Shown here: positions 1 through 56,996 of the stretch, in pieces | How positions within the stretch are numbered: the stretch's first letter is position 1 | Layout of the letters: the number at the start of each line of letters is the position of its first letter | Origin: Escherichia coli | GTDB taxonomy: Bacteria > Pseudomonadota > Gammaproteobacteria > Enterobacterales > Enterobacteriaceae | Strand: one strand, 5' to 3' | Assembly (NCBI RefSeq): GCF_030384885.1 | Contig: NZ_CP128613.1 | DNA length: 64,000 nucleotides | Translations under genes and position numbers: made by a program | Notes under the pieces: model-generated | What the model was told of the DNA's origin: nothing | What the model saw: the letters and a program-made list of their open reading frames with translations, nothing else | Databases searched by the model: none

Positions 1-507
1 GCGTAGAAGTGTGTTGTCCTTCCAGAAATAGTGGTGTGCCAGTGCAGCCGCAGCGTGCAACCCGATGACAAAATATCCCAGATTCGCCAGCGTCTCATGC
101 CACCACTTTAAGCTATCAACCCGTTCGAAATTGGCCTCTGCTGCATAAGGCATTGTCATACCAAACGCAAACCACGGGTTGCCCCGGTTATACATCATCA
201 CCAAACCAATCACTGGCAGCGCAATAAACAGGAGATAAATCACCAAATGTCCCAAATGTGCCAGTCCCGTCATCATCGGTTTTGGTTTAGGTACAATCGG
301 CGGAGTTGGGTATTTAAGCCTTAACAAAAGACGAACAACCATCAGCACGAGAATTGTGATGCCACAGGAAACATGAATCATGTTGATGAGCGGCCGATCG
401 CTACGTGGGAAGAAACCACGAAACTCCATTGCGCAATACGCTGCGATAACCAGCAAAAAGACCAGCCAGTGAATGCCGATTTGTAACCTTGAATATTTAC
501 TTTCCAT
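1..507 (-). CDS. cybB: cytochrome b561, 3' end runs off the window
   Basis: Minus-strand ATG at 507..505; frame stays open to position 1; translation starts MESKYSRLQIGIHWLVF and reaches ...HHYFWKDNTLLR at the window edge. Confidence 0.75.
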   Translation of the reverse strand, partial: MESKYSRLQIGIHWLVFLLVIAAYCAMEFRGFFPRSDRPLINMIHVSCGITILVLMVVRLLLRLKYPTPPIVPKPKPMMTGLAHLGHLVIYLLFIALPVIGLVMMYNRGNPWFAFGMTMPYAAEANFERVDSLKWWHETLANLGYFVIGLHAAAALAHHYFWKDNTLLR

Positions 508-695
508 AACATTTCCTGCTTTAACATAATTTTCCGTTAACATAACGAGCTTTTCTTAAAATTTCATTAAATATTGTTCACCCGTTTTCAGTACGTTACG
601 TTTCACGGCAAGAATGTAGATTGCCCATCCCGCCATCCTGGTCTAAGCCTGGAAAGGATCAATTTTCATCCGAACGTTCCTGACAGGAGAAGACC

Positions 696-1697
696 ATGAG
701 TAAAGTTGGTATTAACGGTTTTGGTCGTATCGGTCGACTGGTGTTGCGTCGATTACTTGAAGTCAAAAGCAACATAGACATTGTCGCTATTAATGATCTC
801 ACTTCCCCAAAAATTCTCGCCTACCTGCTGAAACATGATTCAAACTACGGACCGTTCCCCTGGAGCGTTGATTTTACGGAAGATTCACTTATCGTTGATG
901 GAAAAAGTATCGCGGTTTACGCCGAAAAAGAGGCTAAAAATATTCCATGGAAAGCGAAAGGCGCAGAAATCATTGTCGAATGTACTGGCTTTTATACCTC
1001 CGCCGAGAAATCGCAGGCGCACCTTGATGCTGGTGCGAAGAAGGTGTTGATTTCCGCCCCTGCCGGTGAAATGAAAACCATCGTTTATAACGTCAATGAC
1101 GACACACTGGATGGCAACGACACCATTGTTTCCGTGGCGTCATGCACCACTAACTGTCTTGCACCGATGGCCAAAGCCTTGCACGACAGTTTCGGAATAG
1201 AAGTCGGCACGATGACGACCATTCATGCCTATACTGGCACCCAGTCACTGGTGGATGGCCCGCGAGGTAAAGATCTACGCGCTTCACGTGCAGCGGCAGA
1301 AAATATCATTCCCCACACTACAGGCGCGGCAAAAGCCATTGGTCTGGTGATCCCAGAACTGAGCGGCAAACTGAAAGGTCATGCGCAACGCGTACCCGTG
1401 AAAACAGGTTCGGTGACTGAACTGGTGTCTATTCTTGGAAAAAAAGTGACTGCCGAAGAGGTGAACAACGCGCTTAAAAACGCGACAAACAATAACGAGT
1501 CATTTGGTTATACCGATGAAGAAATAGTCTCTTCTGATATCATTGGCAGCCATTTCGGGTCGGTGTTTGATGCCACGCAAACCGAAATTACCGCCGTGGG
1601 CGATTTACAACTGGTGAAAACGGTCGCCTGGTATGATAACGAATATGGCTTCGTCACGCAGCTTATTCGCACCCTCGAAAAATTCGCTAAACTCTGA
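696..1697 (+). CDS. gapC: glyceraldehyde-3-phosphate dehydrogenase C, intact 333 aa
   Basis: NAD-binding N-terminus [10 protein letters not shown] and active-site SCTTNCLAP; uninterrupted 333-codon ORF. Confidence 0.9.
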
Positions 1698-1738
1698 CGA
1701 GCAAAGGCGGAGGGAAAAGCCTCCGCCTCTTTCACTCA

Positions 1739-3178
1739 TTACGACTGTAAATAAACCACCTGGGTCTGCAGGTATTCATGCAAGCCATGTTTGCCATCTG
1801 CGCCGCCAATACCGGATTTACGCCATCCGGCGTGGAATCCTTGCATAGCTTCGAAGTTTTCACGGTTGATGTAAGTTTCACCAAACTTCAGCCCTTTAAT
1901 AGCTTTCATCGCGACGTTCAGATTTTGGGTATAGAGTGATGAGGTCAGGCCGTAATCACTGTCATTAGCCATTGCGATAGCCTCTTCCAGCGTGTCAAAT
2001 GCGACCACTGGCAGCACCGGGCCAAAGGTTTCCTCGTGCATAATCGACATTTCCTGACGAACATCCAGCAGCAAAGTCGGCGGATAATAATATCCTTTCC
2101 CCTCAACCGCTTTGCCCCCCAACGCTACCCTCGCCCCCTCTTCGACTGCGCGCGCCACTTTTTGCTCGACCCTTTCCAGCGCCGCGGCGTTAATCAACGG
2201 CCCCATCGCAATGTCGTTGCGTTCAGCGGGGTTACCAAATTGAACCGCCTGCATCGCTTCACCCAGCCGATTGACGAACTGATCATAAATGCCTTTCTGT
2301 ACATAAACACGTTCTGCACAGTTACACACTTGCCCACTATTAATGACGCGTGAATCAACGATGGCTTTGACTGCCAGTTCAAGATCGGCATCGTCCATTA
2401 CGATAGCTGGTGCTTTACCACCCAATTCCAGACACACTTTTGTGATATTTTTTGCTGCAGTCGCCATGATCTTTTCACCTGCAGAGACGCTGCCTGTCAT
2501 ACTGACCATTGCGACCTTTGGGTTACCCGCCAGTTCTTGCCCAACGGTTTCACCACGCCCCAGCACAAGGTTAAACACACCGCGTGGAAGGCCTATTTCA
2601 TCGACAATTTTGGCAAAAGCAATCGCATTGTTTGGCGTAAATTCACTGGGTTTAATGACGATGGTATTACCGGTCAAAAGAGCGGGAGCCATTTTGCGGG
2701 CAATGAGGAAGAACGGGAAGTTCCACGGCAGAATGCCGGTAGTCACGCCAAGCGCACGTTTAAAGAGAAGAATATTTTCTCCTGGACGATCGCTTTGAAT
2801 AATCTCACCTTCGTAACGCCGCGCCCACTCTGCCATGTAATCGATATAATCCGCAGTAAATGCCACCTCAACTTCGGCCAGCTGCTGGATCTTGCCCCCT
2901 TCTTCAACAATCAGCGCACTGATTTCACTGGCGCGTTCGCGGATCCCGGCGGCGATTTTGCGCAACCAACTGGCGCGTTCAATGGCAGGCAATGCTTCCC
3001 ATTCTGGCTGCGCGCGCTCTGCGGCGTCGATTGCTTTGCGAGCATCTTCAGCCTGACCATCGGGAATGCGGGAAATCACCGCCTCTGTTGCGGGGTTAAC
3101 CACATCAATCCATGCGTCTCCACGCCAGGTAACAAACTGTCCATCGATATACATAGGATGTTGAACGGGTACTGACAT
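1739..3178 (-). CDS. aldA: lactaldehyde/glycolaldehyde dehydrogenase (NAD-dependent aldehyde dehydrogenase)
   Basis: 479-aa ORF with aldehyde dehydrogenase hallmarks (ELGGKAP, catalytic Cys region GQVCNCAERVYV). Confidence 0.93.
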   Translation of the reverse strand: MSVPVQHPMYIDGQFVTWRGDAWIDVVNPATEAVISRIPDGQAEDARKAIDAAERAQPEWEALPAIERASWLRKIAAGIRERASEISALIVEEGGKIQQLAEVEVAFTADYIDYMAEWARRYEGEIIQSDRPGENILLFKRALGVTTGILPWNFPFFLIARKMAPALLTGNTIVIKPSEFTPNNAIAFAKIVDEIGLPRGVFNLVLGRGETVGQELAGNPKVAMVSMTGSVSAGEKIMATAAKNITKVCLELGGKAPAIVMDDADLELAVKAIVDSRVINSGQVCNCAERVYVQKGIYDQFVNRLGEAMQAVQFGNPAERNDIAMGPLINAAALERVEQKVARAVEEGARVALGGKAVEGKGYYYPPTLLLDVRQEMSIMHEETFGPVLPVVAFDTLEEAIAMANDSDYGLTSSLYTQNLNVAMKAIKGLKFGETYINRENFEAMQGFHAGWRKSGIGGADGKHGLHEYLQTQVVYLQS

Positions 3179-3371
3179 GGGAGACTCCTGTGATTAATGT
3201 GTGTATTTGGTAAATTATTTGTTAATTAATATCAATCATCATAGAGACAGCATCTTGAAAGGACAAATCTGTGAAGAGCTTCATAAAAAGAAGGGTAAAA
3301 GGAATAAAAGGCAGAAAAAAAAGTAAGGAGTCATGCCCGTTTGCAAACAGTTATTCTCAAACGGGCAATTT

Positions 3372-4172
3372 TCAACGTAGCGAACGACTTTCCATCGCCT
3401 CGATAAGCACAGCATCGTGTTTCAGCGTTTGCCATGCCTGGGTGACTTCTGCAGGAAAATCAACGTGAACGATAAAATCTCGCCCACGGGGACCATAGCC
3501 ATCACTATCATCGCGTAAACGTGGCAGCTCGCCAGTGAGTAGTGAGAGATAACGCTCAACCGGCCATAATCCTTCTAACTGGTTAATAAAGATTACACTG
3601 TCTTCGTTGTTTCCTAGCTGAGGAACGAATCCGGGATAACTTAACCAGCGAGGTGCATCTGGATTGTCCCCGGTCATACGGCGGAACGTCGCCATCGTGC
3701 GCCGCTGCATGGTGGGGTCCTGAACAACGATAGCCGTATGAACTCTTTCTACGGCCTGATTCAATAGCGCGATGCTAAAGCGTGCGTTTTCACCGCAGTT
3801 TGTTGACTGGTCTTCAATCCAGATTTTTTCATGCGGAATGTGCCAGAACTGATGAGCGATATCCGCCAGGATGGTAGCTTCTGCTCTGCCAGTGGTGCGG
3901 ATAGTGTTGTAGTGCGGATGCTGTGCGATGGCGCTATACAAAAAAGTTGTCGAGTGACCGATACCACCACTAATCAGTAGAGGAATTTGCTGATCGCGGG
4001 CAATCTTACATGCCGCATCGATAGTCGGTATAACCGCATTGCCTGCAAGGATCACGCAATCGGCCTGATACGGCACCTCACCGGAGAAATCATCCTGCGC
4101 CAGCCACTGACCGATAACATTTATGGCATCTATGGTTGCCGGCGAAAGCGTCGGAAACGGGGTAATGTTCAT
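3372..4172 (-). CDS. ydcF: DUF218-family protein YdcF
   Basis: 266-aa ORF in the syntenic position between aldA and hrpA. Confidence 0.8.
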
Positions 4173-4443
4173 GGTTCCTCCTTATCGTTCCCTTAAGAAT
4201 ACTGCGTGAGATAATAATGAGAAGCGGAGCACTCTGAAAGGAGGAAGTCGTATTTCCTTAACCGCCACTCCGCAAGCCTGACATATCTTTTAAGGAAATG
4301 CTGTAGATAAACATTATTCATCTTGCAGCAGAGAATTGTATTTTTCTGAATTCCTGAATTTTTGCCCTTACCGTTTTAGAATTAATAAAAAACCCGGCGC
4401 TAAATGCTTACCGGGTTTTAGATTTATCAGGCAAATAGCAGCG

Positions 4444-7400
4444 TTAACCGCTAATCTGCTCCATCGCCTGTAGAATACGCTTATCTGAAATCGGATAAGG
4501 TGTACCGAGTTGTTGGGCAAAATAGCTGACGCGCAACTCCTCTATCATCCAGCGTATCTCTTTCACGTCTTCATCCTCACGACGTGCAGGCGGCAGTTTG
4601 TTGATCCATTGCTGCCACGCCTGCTGGACGTTTTCAACTTTCAGCATCTGAGCACGGTCACGGTGCGGGTCAACCGCCAGTTTTTCCAGACGCTTTTCAA
4701 TCGCCTGCAAATAACGCAGCGTGTCGCCCAGGCGTTTGAAGCCATTACCAGTGACAAAACCGCGATACACCAGCCCACTCATCTGCGCTTTAATGTCAGA
4801 AAGCCCCAGCGCCATGGTCATATCCACCCGCCCTTTCAGGCGTTTGTTGATATTGAACACCGCCGTAAGGATTTGCTCTACCTGCTTCGCAATATCCACC
4901 ACCGTGTCGTTCAGTTCAGCGCGGACTTTTTCATGAAGCGCAGCAAAGCCCTCTTCCGTCCAGACCGGGCCGCCCGCCTCATCAATCAACTTATCAACAC
5001 CGCAGGAGATGCAGTCGTCAATGAGATCCAGCACTTTACCGTACGGGTTAAAGTAGAGACCAAGCTTCGCTTTGTTCGGCAGTTTCTCATGCAGATATTT
5101 AATTGGCGACGGAATATTCAGCAGCAGCAAGCGACGCAAACCACGCCACATAGCCTGCTGTTGTTCCTGCGGGTTATCAAAAAGCTTAATCGCTACGCTG
5201 TCACGCTCATCCACCAGCGCAGGCCAGGCCTTCACTTTGTAGTTGCCACGTTTCTGCTCGTAGTGATCCGGTAAATTACCGAAGCTCCAGATATGTAACC
5301 CGCTTTGCTCAATACCATCATCGGCAACGGCGGAAAGCGTTTCCTGCACTTTGCCTTTCAGGGCGTCTTTCAGATCCTGTAATGAGCGCCCTTCTTTTAG
5401 CTTCTTATTTTTGTCATCCACCACACGGAAGGTGATTTTCAGGTGATCGGGCACCTGATCCCAGTGCCAGTCTTCGCGGTCAACGGTAACGCCGGTCATC
5501 CGCCGTAGCTCGCGCTCAAGGCTGTCGAGCAACGGCAGTTCCAGCGGCGTGACGCGACCTAAAAACGCTTCGGCGTAGTTTGGCGCGGGCACAAAATTAC
5601 GCCGTACCGGTTTCGGCAACGATTTGATTAGAGCAATCACCAGTTCACGGCGCAGGCCGGGGATCTGCCACTCAAACCCGCTTTCCTCAACCTGGTTAAG
5701 TAATGGCAGCGGAATATGCACGGTCACACCGTCAGCATCCGCCCCCGGCTCAAACTGATAGCTTAAACGCAGCTTGAGATTGCCCTGATGCCAGAAGTTC
5801 GGGTAATCCAGCTTGCTGATTTTTTCCGCCCCTTCTTTGATCAACATGCTCTTTTCAAAGTTGAGCAAATCAGGTGTTTCGCGGCTGACTTTTTTCCACC
5901 AACTATCAAAGTGACGTGCAGAGATCACATCATGGCTGATGCGCTGGTCGTAAAACTCAAACAACGTTTCGTCATCCACCAGAATATCGCGGCGACGTGA
6001 TTTGTGTTCCAGTTCTTCCACTTCTGCCCGTAGTTTCAGGTTTTCACGGAAGAATGCGTGACGCGTCTGCCAGTCACCTTCCACCAGCGCGTGGCGAATA
6101 AAAAGTTCACGACACAGCGCCGGATCAATCTGGCTGTAGTTGACCTTACGCGCAGCAACAATCGGCAACCCGTAAACGGTGACTTTTTCAGTTGCCATCA
6201 CCGCGCCCTGCGCCCGTTCCCAGTGCGGTTCGCTGTAGGAGCGTTTAATCAAATGCTGGGCAACTGGCTCTACCCATTCTGGATCGATGCGTGCCGCAAT
6301 GCGCCCCCACAGGCGGCTGGTTTCTACCAGTTCCGCCACCATTGCCCATTTCGGCGGCTTCTTGAATAAACCAGAACCGGGGAAGATGGAGAAACGCGCG
6401 TTACGTGCGCCGGTATATTCCTGTTTATCGGCATCTTTCATCCCGATATGCGAAAGCAAACCGGTCAGTAAGGCGATGTGAATTTCGCGATACTCCGCCG
6501 GTTCGCTGTTAACCGGAATGCCAAGTTCTTTCACCACCTGGCGCAACTGGGTGTAGATGTCCTGCCATTCGCGCACGCGCAGATAGTTAAGGTAATCGGT
6601 ACGGCAAAGGCGACGGAAGGCGTTTGAAGAGAGCGCCTTTTGCTGCTCGCCGAGATAATTCCACAGATTTACAAACGCCAGGAAGTCGGATTCTTTATCG
6701 TGGAAGCGACGATGTTTTTCGTCCGATGCCTGCTGCTTGTCCATTGGCCGCTCACGCGGGTCCTGAATAGAGAGCGCGGAAGTGATAATCATCGCCTCAC
6801 GCACGCAGCCATGTTTCTGCGCTTCCAGCACCATTCGCGCCAGACGAGGATCGACTGGCAGTTGCGAGAGCTGGCGACCGAGCGGCGTCAGTTTATAGGC
6901 GCTGGCCTGTTCATCAGTGGTGATCGCGCCCAGCTCTTCGAGCAGACGCACGCCATCCTGGATATTGCGTTTATCCGGCGCTTCTACAAACGGGAACGCA
7001 GCGATATCGCCCAGCCCCAGCGCGGTCATCTGCAAAATAACCGAGGCCAGGTTGGTACGCAGAATCTCCGGATCGGTAAACTCCGGGCGCGAGAGGAAAT
7101 CGTCTTCGGAATAAAGACGAATGCAGATCCCTTCTGACACACGACCACAGCGGCCTTTACGCTGATTAGCTGAAGCCTGCGAAATGGGCTCAATCGGCAA
7201 ACGCTGCACTTTGGTGCGATAGCTGTAGCGGCTGATACGCGCCGTACCTGGGTCGATAACGTATTTAATCCCCGGCACGGTCAGCGACGTTTCCGCGACG
7301 TTAGTCGCCAGCACAATGCGCCGTCCGCTGTGCGACTGGAAGACGCGGTTCTGCTCGCTGTTCGAAAGCCGTGCATAAAGCGGAAGAATTTCCGTATGGC

Positions 7401-34080: not shown

Positions 34081-34596
<516 letters not shown>

Positions 34597-34602
34597 CACT
34601 AA

Positions 34603-34629
34603 CGCCCGCACATTGCTGCGGGCTTTTTG
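34603..34629 (+). terminator. uspF intrinsic terminator
   Basis: Hairpin cccgcacattgctgcggg followed by CTTTTTG. Confidence 0.7.
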
Positions 34630-34771
34630 ATTCATTTCGCAAATGTGCTGACATTTTCCCCTCTAATCCGTACCATACACGCCACAGTTTTTATATCAGA
34701 TTTCTTATGCTGGGCGTTCCGGCATGACGCATACTCTTCTGATGCCATATAACGAATTGAGTCGCTTTTAA

Positions 34772-35707
34772 ATGTCGCAAAATCAAGAAATTAGTAAGAA
34801 AGAACAATACAATCTGAACAAATTACAAAAACGTCTGCGTCGTAACGTGGGCGAAGCCATTGCTGACTTCAATATGATTGAAGAAGGCGATCGCATCATG
34901 GTTTGCCTCTCCGGGGGTAAAGACAGCTATACCATGCTGGAGATTCTGCGCAATTTGCAGCAAAGCGCGCCAATCAATTTTTCGCTGGTGGCTGTTAACC
35001 TCGATCAAAAGCAACCGGGCTTCCCGGAACACGTTCTGCCCGAGTATCTTGAAAAGCTGGGCATTGAGTACAAGATTGTGGAAGAGAACACTTACGGTAT
35101 CGTGAAAGAGAAGATTCCGGAGGGCAAAACCACTTGCTCACTGTGTTCTCGTCTTCGTCGCGGAATTCTTTACCGTACCGCAACGGAACTGGGAGCGACG
35201 AAGATCGCGCTGGGTCACCATCGTGACGATATCCTGCAAACGTTGTTCTTAAATATGTTCTACGGCGGCAAGATGAAAGGTATGCCTCCGAAACTGATGA
35301 GCGATGATGGCAAACATATTGTGATTCGTCCGCTGGCCTACTGCCGCGAGAAAGATATTCAGCGCTTTGCCGATGCAAAAGCGTTCCCGATTATTCCGTG
35401 CAACCTGTGCGGTTCACAACCTAACCTGCAACGTCAGGTGATTGCTGACATGTTGCGTGACTGGGATAAACGTTATCCGGGGCGTATCGAGACGATGTTC
35501 AGCGCGATGCAGAATGTGGTGCCGTCGCATCTGTGCGATACCAACCTGTTCGATTTCAAAGGCATTACCCACGGTTCTGAAGTGGTTAACGGGGGTGATC
35601 TGGCGTTTGATCGCGAAGAGATCCCTCTACAACCGGCGGGTTGGCAGCCTGAAGAAGATGAAAATCAGTTGGATGAGTTACGACTGAATGTGGTTGAAGT
35701 GAAATAA
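34772..35707 (+). CDS. ttcA: tRNA 2-thiocytidine(32) synthetase TtcA, prophage-free allele
   Basis: 311-aa ORF with PP-loop SGGKDS and Cys motifs; the N-terminus [14 protein letters not shown] differs from the recalled K-12 Rac-lysogen form MQENQQITKKEQYN. Confidence 0.9.
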
Positions 35708-54259: not shown

Positions 54260-54763
54260 ATGTCACAAACCGTTCATTTCCAGGGCAACCCGGTTACAGT
54301 CGCCAATTCCATCCCGCAGGCGGGTAGCAAAGCGCAGACTTTTACTCTCGTGGCAAAAGATCTGTCTGACGTCACCCTCGGTCAGTTTGCGGGTAAACGC
54401 AAAGTGCTGAACATTTTCCCGAGTATTGATACCGGTGTTTGCGCCGCATCAGTACGTAAGTTTAACCAACTGGCAACCGAGATCGACAACACCGTTGTGC
54501 TGTGTATCTCTGCCGATCTGCCGTTCGCCCAGTCTCGTTTCTGCGGCGCAGAAGGTCTGAACAACGTTATCACCCTCTCCACTTTCCGTAACGCTGAATT
54601 CCTGCAAGCCTACGGTGTGGCAATTGCTGATGGCCCACTGAAAGGTCTGGCAGCGCGTGCCGTTGTGGTTATCGATGAAAATGACAATGTGATTTTCAGC
54701 CAGCTGGTTGATGAAATCACCACCGAGCCGGATTACGAAGCAGCTCTGGCTGTACTGCGCTAA
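54260..54763 (+). CDS. tpx: thiol peroxidase
   Basis: 167-aa [20 protein letters not shown]... with peroxidatic Cys (SIDTGVC). Confidence 0.95.
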
Positions 54764-54778
54764 ACAACTGTGCCGTTC

Positions 54779-54818
54779 ACTGAATCACCACCGGTGAACG
54801 GCAGTTTTTGATCTACCA
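54779..54818 (+). terminator. tpx intrinsic terminator
   Basis: Hairpin gccgttcac...gtgaacggc followed by AGTTTTTG. Confidence 0.7.
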
Positions 54819-54907
54819 GTCCCATTATTTTCCAGAGTTCCTGCCACTATTCCCCCTAACCGTTGTGCATTAAGATTGCTCTTTGCCATTATTGGCCCAG
54901 CGGAGTG

Positions 54908-56959
54908 ATGACTATTATGGATGATAAACAAATTACGGTCTGGCTTAAACACAATTGCTGTTCAACGGACATTCCTGCCATTGCCGAGGCACTAACGAAC
55001 CATGCAGAATGGCTTTTAGAGCTAGCGCCAGATCCTATTGAACAAGGTTGTTCATGTTTACCGCCGACAGCTGCAGCCGGTATTTTTCTTGGCGCAGCGG
55101 CGATGGTTCACTGCGGCGAGGCTAGTGGTGCAGAAACCTGGCTCGAAGCAGCCATTACTGATTACCATTTCTTTAATCCAAATGGATATAGTTCATGGAG
55201 AGGCAGTACGCCTGTTTTTACAGCATTATCGCGTTACCCGGCATTAAGAATGGTGTTATTTAACGCCGCTTGCGCAATGGAAGACTGGAATAAAGCATCC
55301 GCTGTTCTTGAATCGCTTTTCCATGCCAGCGATGTAACGGAAGATAACCCTGTCGCCCCCAATTTTACCCCTTATGCGCTGAAAGCGTTTATCGCGGATT
55401 ACCACCCGTTAGGGCCTGCTTATTATGATGAAACCTGGTTGCTGGCAAAACAAGCGTGGTTAATTAATGCGGGCGTTCTGGATGAGCGAACCTGTAATAC
55501 CTGGAAGCAATATACCCGCCATTTGCGCCATTTGATCCATAATGCACAGTTTTCCGATGCGATCTCTTTTGTACGCAGTAAAAAAGAACCATTAAATCAT
55601 ATCCATACCTACTCAGACTTTTATCTCTATGCGATTGGTTTATTTTCTTCTACTGATCAGCTAAGTGAAGCGCTAACCTGGGTAAAACAATTAATCCGCA
55701 ACAATGATGGTCATTTCCATGATCTTTTCGTTTCAACTGGCGCAAAGCGCCGAATAAAGCCTGAACTTAGTACCTTGCTGAATAATCTCTTGTACAGCGC
55801 AGAGTTTCAGGCGTTGCAGGATAAATATCTCACCGTCGGACATGATGTTGTGCATTCTGGTCCCTTCATGTCACTTTATGAAAAGGTTCTTGGCGGTAAG
55901 TCCCGAAAGCGCTGCGCGATTAGTCGAAAATTAATCTCACCCGGCGAAGCGGTTTATGAATATCGTCAGCTGGATAGTGTGGAATATATTGCAGCGAAAG
56001 CGGCCTTTCAGACATCTGAGCTAAATAATATCGCCCACCGGCATCATAATGATAGTTATCAGTGGCATGAATTTGCCGTCCAATGGCCTCGTCGGGGTTC
56101 ACTTTCTCACCCAGATATTGCCCGTTATTTGTTTGAGCGCCAGGAAGGAAAATGCTTTGATGCCGCAGAGTTTATACAACTGATTGCGGAACCGTTTGTC
56201 TTTCCGATGCGTTTCATATGGGTTGCCGGGTTGTCCTTTGAATTACATCAGTATCCGGATGCCTATTTCGTAAATGACAATATGGCGGGTGAATTTGTTA
56301 ATCTCTGCTGGATGGCTATGAAATGCGGACATGCTGGCGACATTTTCAAACAACTGGCCCACGAGCCGCATGACGTTGCTGACCCTATTTACGCCATGCT
56401 CGCCACGTTTGACCGCGCTGATTGCCGTAGCGCCGCCGCCGCGCACTTTGGACAACCGGAACTACCGGAAATAATGGCACTGGCTTTCAGTTCGAGGTTA
56501 TCGCTCGACAGCGTCCTTACCATCGCTGAGTTTGGTAAAAATCAGCCGCGATTTTCACATGCGCTAGCAACGGCCCTCCTGCGTTACAACCTGCACATCT
56601 ACTCAAACTATATGCCGCAGGTTAACTGGTACCTTCAGGGGCTGGAACACTATGCTTTGGCAAAAGGCGGTCAACTTTTAAATTTCTTTGTGCATATTCC
56701 AGAACAAATTCCCGTTCTGGCGACCATGCTGGAACATGGCGTATTAGTGCGTGGGATCGGTGAAGGTGCCTATGATGGTTATGATAATTCAGCAAATTCA
56801 TTTCATCATGCCGCCGTGATGCACTGCCTCACGCACGCGCCGGAAAAAGTCCGCTACTGGATGGAAACACCCTGGATTCAGAACTATTTAGTGAATGCGC
56901 CGCTGCGTCAAACGGCGCGCCATGTGGAAGCCTGGCATAAAAAGTTTGGCATCAAATGA
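54908..56959 (+). CDS. uncharacterised ~680-aa protein encoded between tpx and tyrR; no family recognised
   Basis: Uninterrupted frame 54863..56959 (TTG at 54863; likely ATG at 54908 or 54917, with GGAG at 54902). No signal peptide, TM segment or Walker A seen; His/Cys-rich patches (HNCCSTD, GCSCLPP, RHLRHLIHN, HRHHNDSYQWHEF, KCGHAGD). Confidence 0.7.
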   Translation: MTIMDDKQITVWLKHNCCSTDIPAIAEALTNHAEWLLELAPDPIEQGCSCLPPTAAAGIFLGAAAMVHCGEASGAETWLEAAITDYHFFNPNGYSSWRGSTPVFTALSRYPALRMVLFNAACAMEDWNKASAVLESLFHASDVTEDNPVAPNFTPYALKAFIADYHPLGPAYYDETWLLAKQAWLINAGVLDERTCNTWKQYTRHLRHLIHNAQFSDAISFVRSKKEPLNHIHTYSDFYLYAIGLFSSTDQLSEALTWVKQLIRNNDGHFHDLFVSTGAKRRIKPELSTLLNNLLYSAEFQALQDKYLTVGHDVVHSGPFMSLYEKVLGGKSRKRCAISRKLISPGEAVYEYRQLDSVEYIAAKAAFQTSELNNIAHRHHNDSYQWHEFAVQWPRRGSLSHPDIARYLFERQEGKCFDAAEFIQLIAEPFVFPMRFIWVAGLSFELHQYPDAYFVNDNMAGEFVNLCWMAMKCGHAGDIFKQLAHEPHDVADPIYAMLATFDRADCRSAAAAHFGQPELPEIMALAFSSRLSLDSVLTIAEFGKNQPRFSHALATALLRYNLHIYSNYMPQVNWYLQGLEHYALAKGGQLLNFFVHIPEQIPVLATMLEHGVLVRGIGEGAYDGYDNSANSFHHAAVMHCLTHAPEKVRYWMETPWIQNYLVNAPLRQTARHVEAWHKKFGIK

Positions 56960-56967
56960 ACGTTGCC

Positions 56968-56990
56968 GCTGCGCCTGAACGGCGCAGCCA
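56968..56990. terminator. bidirectional hairpin between the convergent unknown ORF and tyrR
   Basis: gctgcgcc tgaac ggcgcagc perfect inverted repeat. Confidence 0.5.
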
Positions 56991-56996
56991 GCACAA

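Follow-up and report, generated by a model that had tools for sequence, protein, structure and literature searches.

GapA is the housekeeping glyceraldehyde-3-phosphate dehydrogenase (GAPDH) of Escherichia coli and is constitutive and highly expressed. The gapC locus is flagged as a pseudogene (b4493) in the annotation of K-12 MG1655, and the two K-12 pieces appear in older papers under the names gapC_1 (b1417) and gapC_2 (b1416) (PMC4447067, PMC2759082). According to the literature, isolates from the environment have an unbroken gapC, and laboratory strains a truncated one. UniProt entry P58072 is the intact GapC of O157:H7, and gapC serves as a qPCR marker for E. coli (PMC10614358).

The nearest described enzyme is EcGAPDH1 (7C5F series), which has been purified, found to be active, and crystallised, and which is 99% identical to the GapC protein considered here (PMC8615399). 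The wild-type enzyme has a Km for glyceraldehyde-3-phosphate (G3P) of 0.73 mM, assayed at 50 degrees C and pH 10; the C150A mutation abolishes activity, and H177A and C150S lower it 8,000- to 38,000-fold, the figure for H177A being about 8,000-fold. Structures of its complexes with NAD, G3P, BPG, and the thioacyl intermediate have been determined (PMC8615399).

Here we describe the gapC gene in a 64,000-nucleotide stretch of E. coli DNA, referred to below as the window. In our reading, which we regard as very likely to be correct, this gene is an intact orthologue of gapC that encodes a phosphorylating, NAD-dependent type I GAPDH, the second such enzyme beside GapA, and is transcribed from the region between cybB and gapC.

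The gapC locus in the window and in K-12

The earlier note had described an uninterrupted 333-codon frame carrying the sequence motifs of a GAPDH, and the open reading frame bears this out: it opens with ATG, has zero internal stops over its 333 codons, and places the NAD-binding motif at residues 5-14 and the catalytic SCTTNCLAP motif at residues 149-157. It is not a chance frame, since its product matches a PDB protein with E = 5e-218 and scores 446 bits against the TIGR01534 model (cut-off 367). The frame is the E. coli gapC orthologue, at its locus between cybB and aldA, and the gene order cybB-gapC-aldA-ydcF is the same in the window, in K-12 MG1655, and in strain 2013C-4282. Window positions 600-1750 are 100% identical in DNA sequence to E. 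coli strain 2013C-4282, with which the annotated gene coordinates also agree, and PGAP labels the identical DNA of that strain as an intact 'gap' gene (WP_000048645.1, 'type I glyceraldehyde-3-phosphate dehydrogenase'). The features of the locus are collected in Table 1.

Table 1. Features of the gapC locus, in window coordinates
Feature	Position	Strand	Remarks
cybB (cytochrome b561 / superoxide oxidase), 5' part	1..507	-	Divergent upstream neighbour, cut by window start
cybB-gapC divergent intergenic region	508..695	.	Presumed location of the gapC promoter
Shine-Dalgarno AGGAG	685..689	+	6 nt before gapC ATG; read from sequence
gapC CDS	696..1697	+	ATG start, 333 codons + TGA; type I NAD-dependent glyceraldehyde-3-phosphate dehydrogenase (ORF listing)
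Codon 39	810..812	+	AAA (Lys) in window; TAA stop in K-12
Catalytic Cys150 codon TGC	1143..1145	+	From alignment with GapA and PDB protein
Catalytic His177 codon CAT	1224..1226	+	From alignment with GapA and PDB protein
A7 run, codons 248-250	1439..1445	+	A6 in K-12, giving a frameshift
9-bp GC-rich hairpin	1705..1728	.	After gapC stop, between convergent gapC and aldA
aldA (aldehyde dehydrogenase A)	1739..3178	-	Convergent downstream neighbour
ydcF	3372..4172	-	Beyond aldA

The statement in the earlier note that K-12 gapC is split agrees with its pseudogene flag, with the naming of its two pieces, and with the two lesions that separate it from the window gene. Codon-by-codon comparison with MG1655 gapC gave 39 differences in the coding sequence (96.1% nucleotide identity). 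One of these is a nonsense change in K-12, in which the AAA codon of K39 has become TAA (window nucleotide 810), and in another the A7 run (window 1439-1445) is shorter by one A, which shifts the reading frame after codon 248. K-12 gapC also carries R18G. The window gene has neither of the two lesions, nor does it have R18G, and the alignment proposed in the earlier note thus came out in favour of an intact gene. Of the remaining 36 differences, 32 are synonymous, and the rest give I29V, N262Q (two bases), and N265T. The K-12 pseudogene is at the orthologous locus, and its upstream region and Shine-Dalgarno sequence are conserved with those of the window. We also considered whether gapC might be a recombination hotspot or a foreign allele, and rejected this: cybB, aldA, and ydcF are equally divergent from K-12, at 95.5-96.5% identity, and the 4% divergence of gapC from its K-12 counterpart is therefore not specific to gapC.

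Three other parts of the window attracted our attention. An intact autotransporter gene (17395..22932, minus strand) encodes a protein of 1,845 amino acids with a BigA/YdbA N-terminal barrel and BigA beta-sandwich domains. Its orthologue ydbA is an IS-disrupted pseudogene in K-12, so that the autotransporter gene would join gapC as a gene of the window whose K-12 counterpart is broken. The genes uspF and ttcA are direct neighbours (34162..35707). In K-12 the Rac prophage adjoins ttcA, and the prophage therefore appears to be absent from the present strain. Between tpx (54260-54763) and tyrR (56997-58565, minus strand) lies an intact open reading frame of 680-698 amino acids (54863/54917..56959, plus strand), inside which the GC content falls to 0.43. 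It is labelled 'hypothetical protein' in strain 2013C-4282 (NZ_CP027579.1), to which window positions 54700-57100 are 99.5% identical, as against 100% at gapC, and it had no match in Pfam, NCBIfam, PADLOC, PHROGs, or the PDB sequences. The lower identity here suggests that the window probably derives from a close relative of 2013C-4282 and not from that very assembly, or else that this gene varies more than its surroundings. The frame is present in only 30 of 5,426 complete E. coli genomes; in the rest, tpx directly joins tyrR. This reading frame is a rare single-gene insertion of a family without assignment.

Family membership, catalytic residues, and substrate

GapC matches the NCBIfam model for GAPDH-I (TIGR01534, EC 1.2.1.12) with 446.2 bits, where the curated cut-off is 367.2, and its residues 3-325 align with positions 1-330 of the 330-position profile. 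Both Pfam domains of the family are present far above their gathering scores, Gp_dh_N (PF00044) at residues 3-102 and Gp_dh_C (PF02800) at residues 155-313. The best matches in the PDB are the E. coli GAPDH entries 7C5F, 7C5H, 7C5P, and 7C7K (E = 5e-218), which are identical to GapC at 330 of 333 residues and differ from it only by I29V, N262Q, and N265T (window to PDB protein). The likeness of the window gene to E. coli GapC P58072 and EcGAPDH1 (PDB 7C5F, 7C5G, 7C5H) extends to the cybB-gapC-aldA locus, the protein length, the C150/H177 pair, and the PGAP label. The three substitutions that set the window allele apart from EcGAPDH1 (I29 for V, N262 for Q, and N265 for T) are conservative or lie at the surface, and all three are natural polymorphisms found in other intact E. 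coli gapC alleles. Other bacterial GAPDH chains in the PDB matched GapC with 410-480 bits, and the lowest score among the 60 matches listed was 302 bits. None of these 60 listed matches appears to be a GapA chain.

GapA (b1779) has the same fold, domains, catalytic and NAD-binding residues, and reaction as GapC, although the two proteins are only 48% identical and are encoded at separate loci. Their alignment showed that GapC has lost no catalytic residue: the GxGxxG motif (G8, G10, G13), D34, S149, C150, H177, T180, R195, R198, T209, G210, R232, and N315 are common to both. The catalytic pair sits in the expected motifs, C150 in S-C-T-T-N-C and H177 in H-x-x-T. We take the roles of such residues in the Ps and Pi sites and in NAD binding (T180, R195, R198, D34, and others) from established knowledge of GAPDH structures. 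The earlier suggestion of a second, possibly active GAPDH paralogue in this strain is accordingly supported, in that the catalytic residues are kept and GAPDH activity has been measured for EcGAPDH1, which departs from the window protein at only 3 of 333 residues.

If GapC works as the nearly identical EcGAPDH1 does, Cys150 would attack the aldehyde of glyceraldehyde-3-phosphate with His177 acting as the base, hydride would then pass to NAD+, and phosphate would cleave the thioester to release 1,3-bisphosphoglycerate. GapC would in this way act as a second GAPDH isoenzyme alongside the housekeeping GapA. By analogy with that enzyme, the product of the window gene is most likely an active NAD-dependent GAPDH with the standard Cys-His thioester mechanism, and we infer that the exact allele (I29, N262, N265) is expressed and active in this strain.

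A different main role for GapC, outside glycolysis, also has to be weighed. The protein might act on another substrate, such as erythrose-4-phosphate, as Epd does, or one in an arsenate-linked pathway, or it might moonlight as a surface or secreted protein. E. coli already has in Epd (GapB, erythrose-4-phosphate dehydrogenase) a paralogue that serves a different substrate and that shares its superfamily and architecture with GapC; the neighbouring aldA encodes an aldehyde dehydrogenase; and GapC gives matches to the models for Epd and for the ArsJ-associated GAPDH. Those matches are below threshold, however. Against the Epd models TIGR01532 and NF010058, GapC scored 277.4 (cut-off 530.55) and 279.9 (cut-off 539), and against the model for the ArsJ-associated GAPDH (NF033735) it scored 307.3 bits (cut-off 450), so that TIGR01534 is alone in being passed at its curated cut-off; moreover, no arsJ gene is adjacent, the neighbours being cybB and aldA. 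EcGAPDH1, 99% identical to GapC, oxidises G3P with NAD, and its crystal structures include complexes with G3P, BPG, and a thioacyl intermediate (PMC8615399). We therefore regard a main role other than that of a glycolytic GAPDH as extremely improbable.

Intact and inactivated gapC in E. coli

Of 5,426 complete E. coli genomes, 5,417 have the gapC locus, and in 5,408 at least 80% of the query matched at 90-100% identity. Three short sequences were used to follow the alleles through this set. A 71-mer with an intact codon 39 occurs exactly in 2,908 genomes, the corresponding TAA-bearing 71-mer of K-12 occurs exactly in 1,152, and a 31-mer spanning the A6 frameshift occurs exactly in 1,140; in the last search exact matches represent the K-12 allele, whereas the matches at 96.9% over spans of 32 nt also take in A7 alleles whose flanks resemble those of K-12. 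The length of the matched span (1150 versus 1151 nt) is an imperfect proxy for the frameshift, as AR13438 shows: its coding sequence is intact, and it is the gapC-aldA spacer that is one base short. No fewer than about 21% of complete genomes thus carry the K-12 null haplotype (R18G, K39*, and the frameshift); the set includes laboratory derivatives, so that the share among natural isolates could be lower. Our frequency figures, which come from exact-match counts and from a sample of 17 genomes, are lower bounds.

The sample was systematic, its 17 genomes being drawn from the ranking at regular intervals. For 15 of these, O157:H7 and O145 strains among them, the PGAP annotation shows an unbroken gapC of 1,002 nt. 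The gapC gene of strain 720632, isolated from human stool in Pakistan, shows zero differences from the MG1655 pseudogene allele. In CUPS05, a separate 1-base deletion has occurred in an A4 run at position 208 of the coding sequence, and the gene is otherwise that of an intact allele. Beyond this sample, an IS1-associated deletion in SCPM-O-B-7615 (seen at 2597-4774 of its locus record) has cost gapC and aldA alike their 3' parts. At least three independent events have therefore inactivated gapC in E. coli, those that gave rise to the K-12 haplotype, the CUPS05 frameshift, and the IS1 deletion, and the repeated loss of the gene indicates that it is dispensable in at least some niches. Since the K-12 allele recurs base for base in the wild isolate 720632 and its diagnostic sequences recur in at least 1,140-1,152 genomes, K-12 must have inherited a haplotype that exists in nature, and its gapC state is no artefact of the laboratory.

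The rarity that the earlier note had implied for an intact gapC is wrong. Most E. coli have the intact gene, as do 15 of the 17 sampled genomes, and earlier publications describe it. For the species, intact gapC is the normal wild type and K-12 is the exception, which was already known.

The intact alleles bear the mark of strong purifying selection on the protein. Among 15 intact alleles the mean dS is 0.102 and the mean dN is 0.0044, giving a dN/dS of 0.044, and the segregating sites at codon positions 1, 2, and 3 number 10, 4, and 69, respectively. Only 13 amino-acid positions vary among these alleles, and the catalytic and cofactor-binding residues given earlier are not among the 13. A dN/dS of about 0.04 among intact alleles implies that selection preserves gapC and that there must be conditions in which the gene is expressed.

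The upstream region and expression of gapC

The proximal 146 nt upstream of the gapC start (window 550-695) are almost invariant across 14 E. coli lineages and are more conserved than synonymous sites, and the AGGAG Shine-Dalgarno sequence is invariant in the same 14 lineages. Over its whole 188 nt, the cybB-gapC intergenic region is 95.7% identical to that of K-12. A scan of the cybB-gapC region with the sigma-70 consensus gave one match (501-530), with 1.8 expected by chance, and because this sole sigma-70-like match is no better than chance we claim no position for the gapC promoter. Downstream of the gene, the hairpin between gapC and aldA folds with an energy of -20.2 kcal/mol (z = -3.9), which not one of 200 shuffled sequences equalled. 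It is a probable bidirectional terminator for gapC and aldA; a scan for the terminator consensus missed it because of its weak T-tract (UCUUUCAC).

Published data speak to the expression of gapC in other strains. In K-12, a ChIP peak for sigma-S RNA polymerase lies within the gapC-cybB intergenic region (PMC4447067), and in a K-12 derivative gapC transcripts are rpoS-dependent and are induced by carbon limitation (PMC2759082). In enteropathogenic E. coli (EPEC), RNA-seq detects gapC transcripts, which are lower in a csrA mutant (PMC6333774). Preferential expression of gapC in fresh water has also been published. In the mechanism that we propose, gapC would be translated from its strong Shine-Dalgarno sequence and transcribed from the conserved cybB-gapC intergenic region, the region that binds sigma-S RNA polymerase in K-12 and whose promoter is reportedly activated in fresh water and under carbon limitation.

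The evidence on selection and on expression bears on a further possibility, namely, that gapC in this strain is intact and yet silent or cryptic, with no meaningful expression, and that this lineage has simply not yet acquired a disabling mutation. Such a state would fit the lack of a sigma-70 promoter above chance in the cybB-gapC region, the three or more independent inactivations of the gene within the species (K-12 haplotype, CUPS05 frameshift, IS1 deletion), and the established position of GapA as the housekeeping enzyme. It is at odds, however, with the ratio of dN to dS seen over a dS of about 0.10 and with the third-position location of 69 of the 83 segregating sites, a pattern that needs selection on the protein. 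An upstream region and Shine-Dalgarno sequence more conserved than synonymous sites argue against it as well, as do the published transcripts and promoter activity (PMC6333774, PMC2759082). We consider a silent gapC highly unlikely. Overall, gapC is probably expressed in this strain in stationary phase or under environmental conditions, from the conserved region that separates it from the divergent cybB.

For this strain, an intact gapC means little beyond correct annotation. At the level of the species, one might tentatively suppose that gapC is under niche-dependent selection, being strongly conserved in most lineages, repeatedly and independently knocked out, and represented by one null haplotype that persists in natural isolates; we think this possible but less likely than not. 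If it is true, then the K-12 state, which the literature phrases as a laboratory artefact, would be a natural polymorphism that is widespread and that selection may favour in some lineages adapted to hosts. Metabolic models and engineering based on K-12 count one GAPDH, GapA, whereas most natural and pathogenic strains, this one included, encode a second, and GapC may contribute under stationary-phase, low-temperature, or aquatic conditions.
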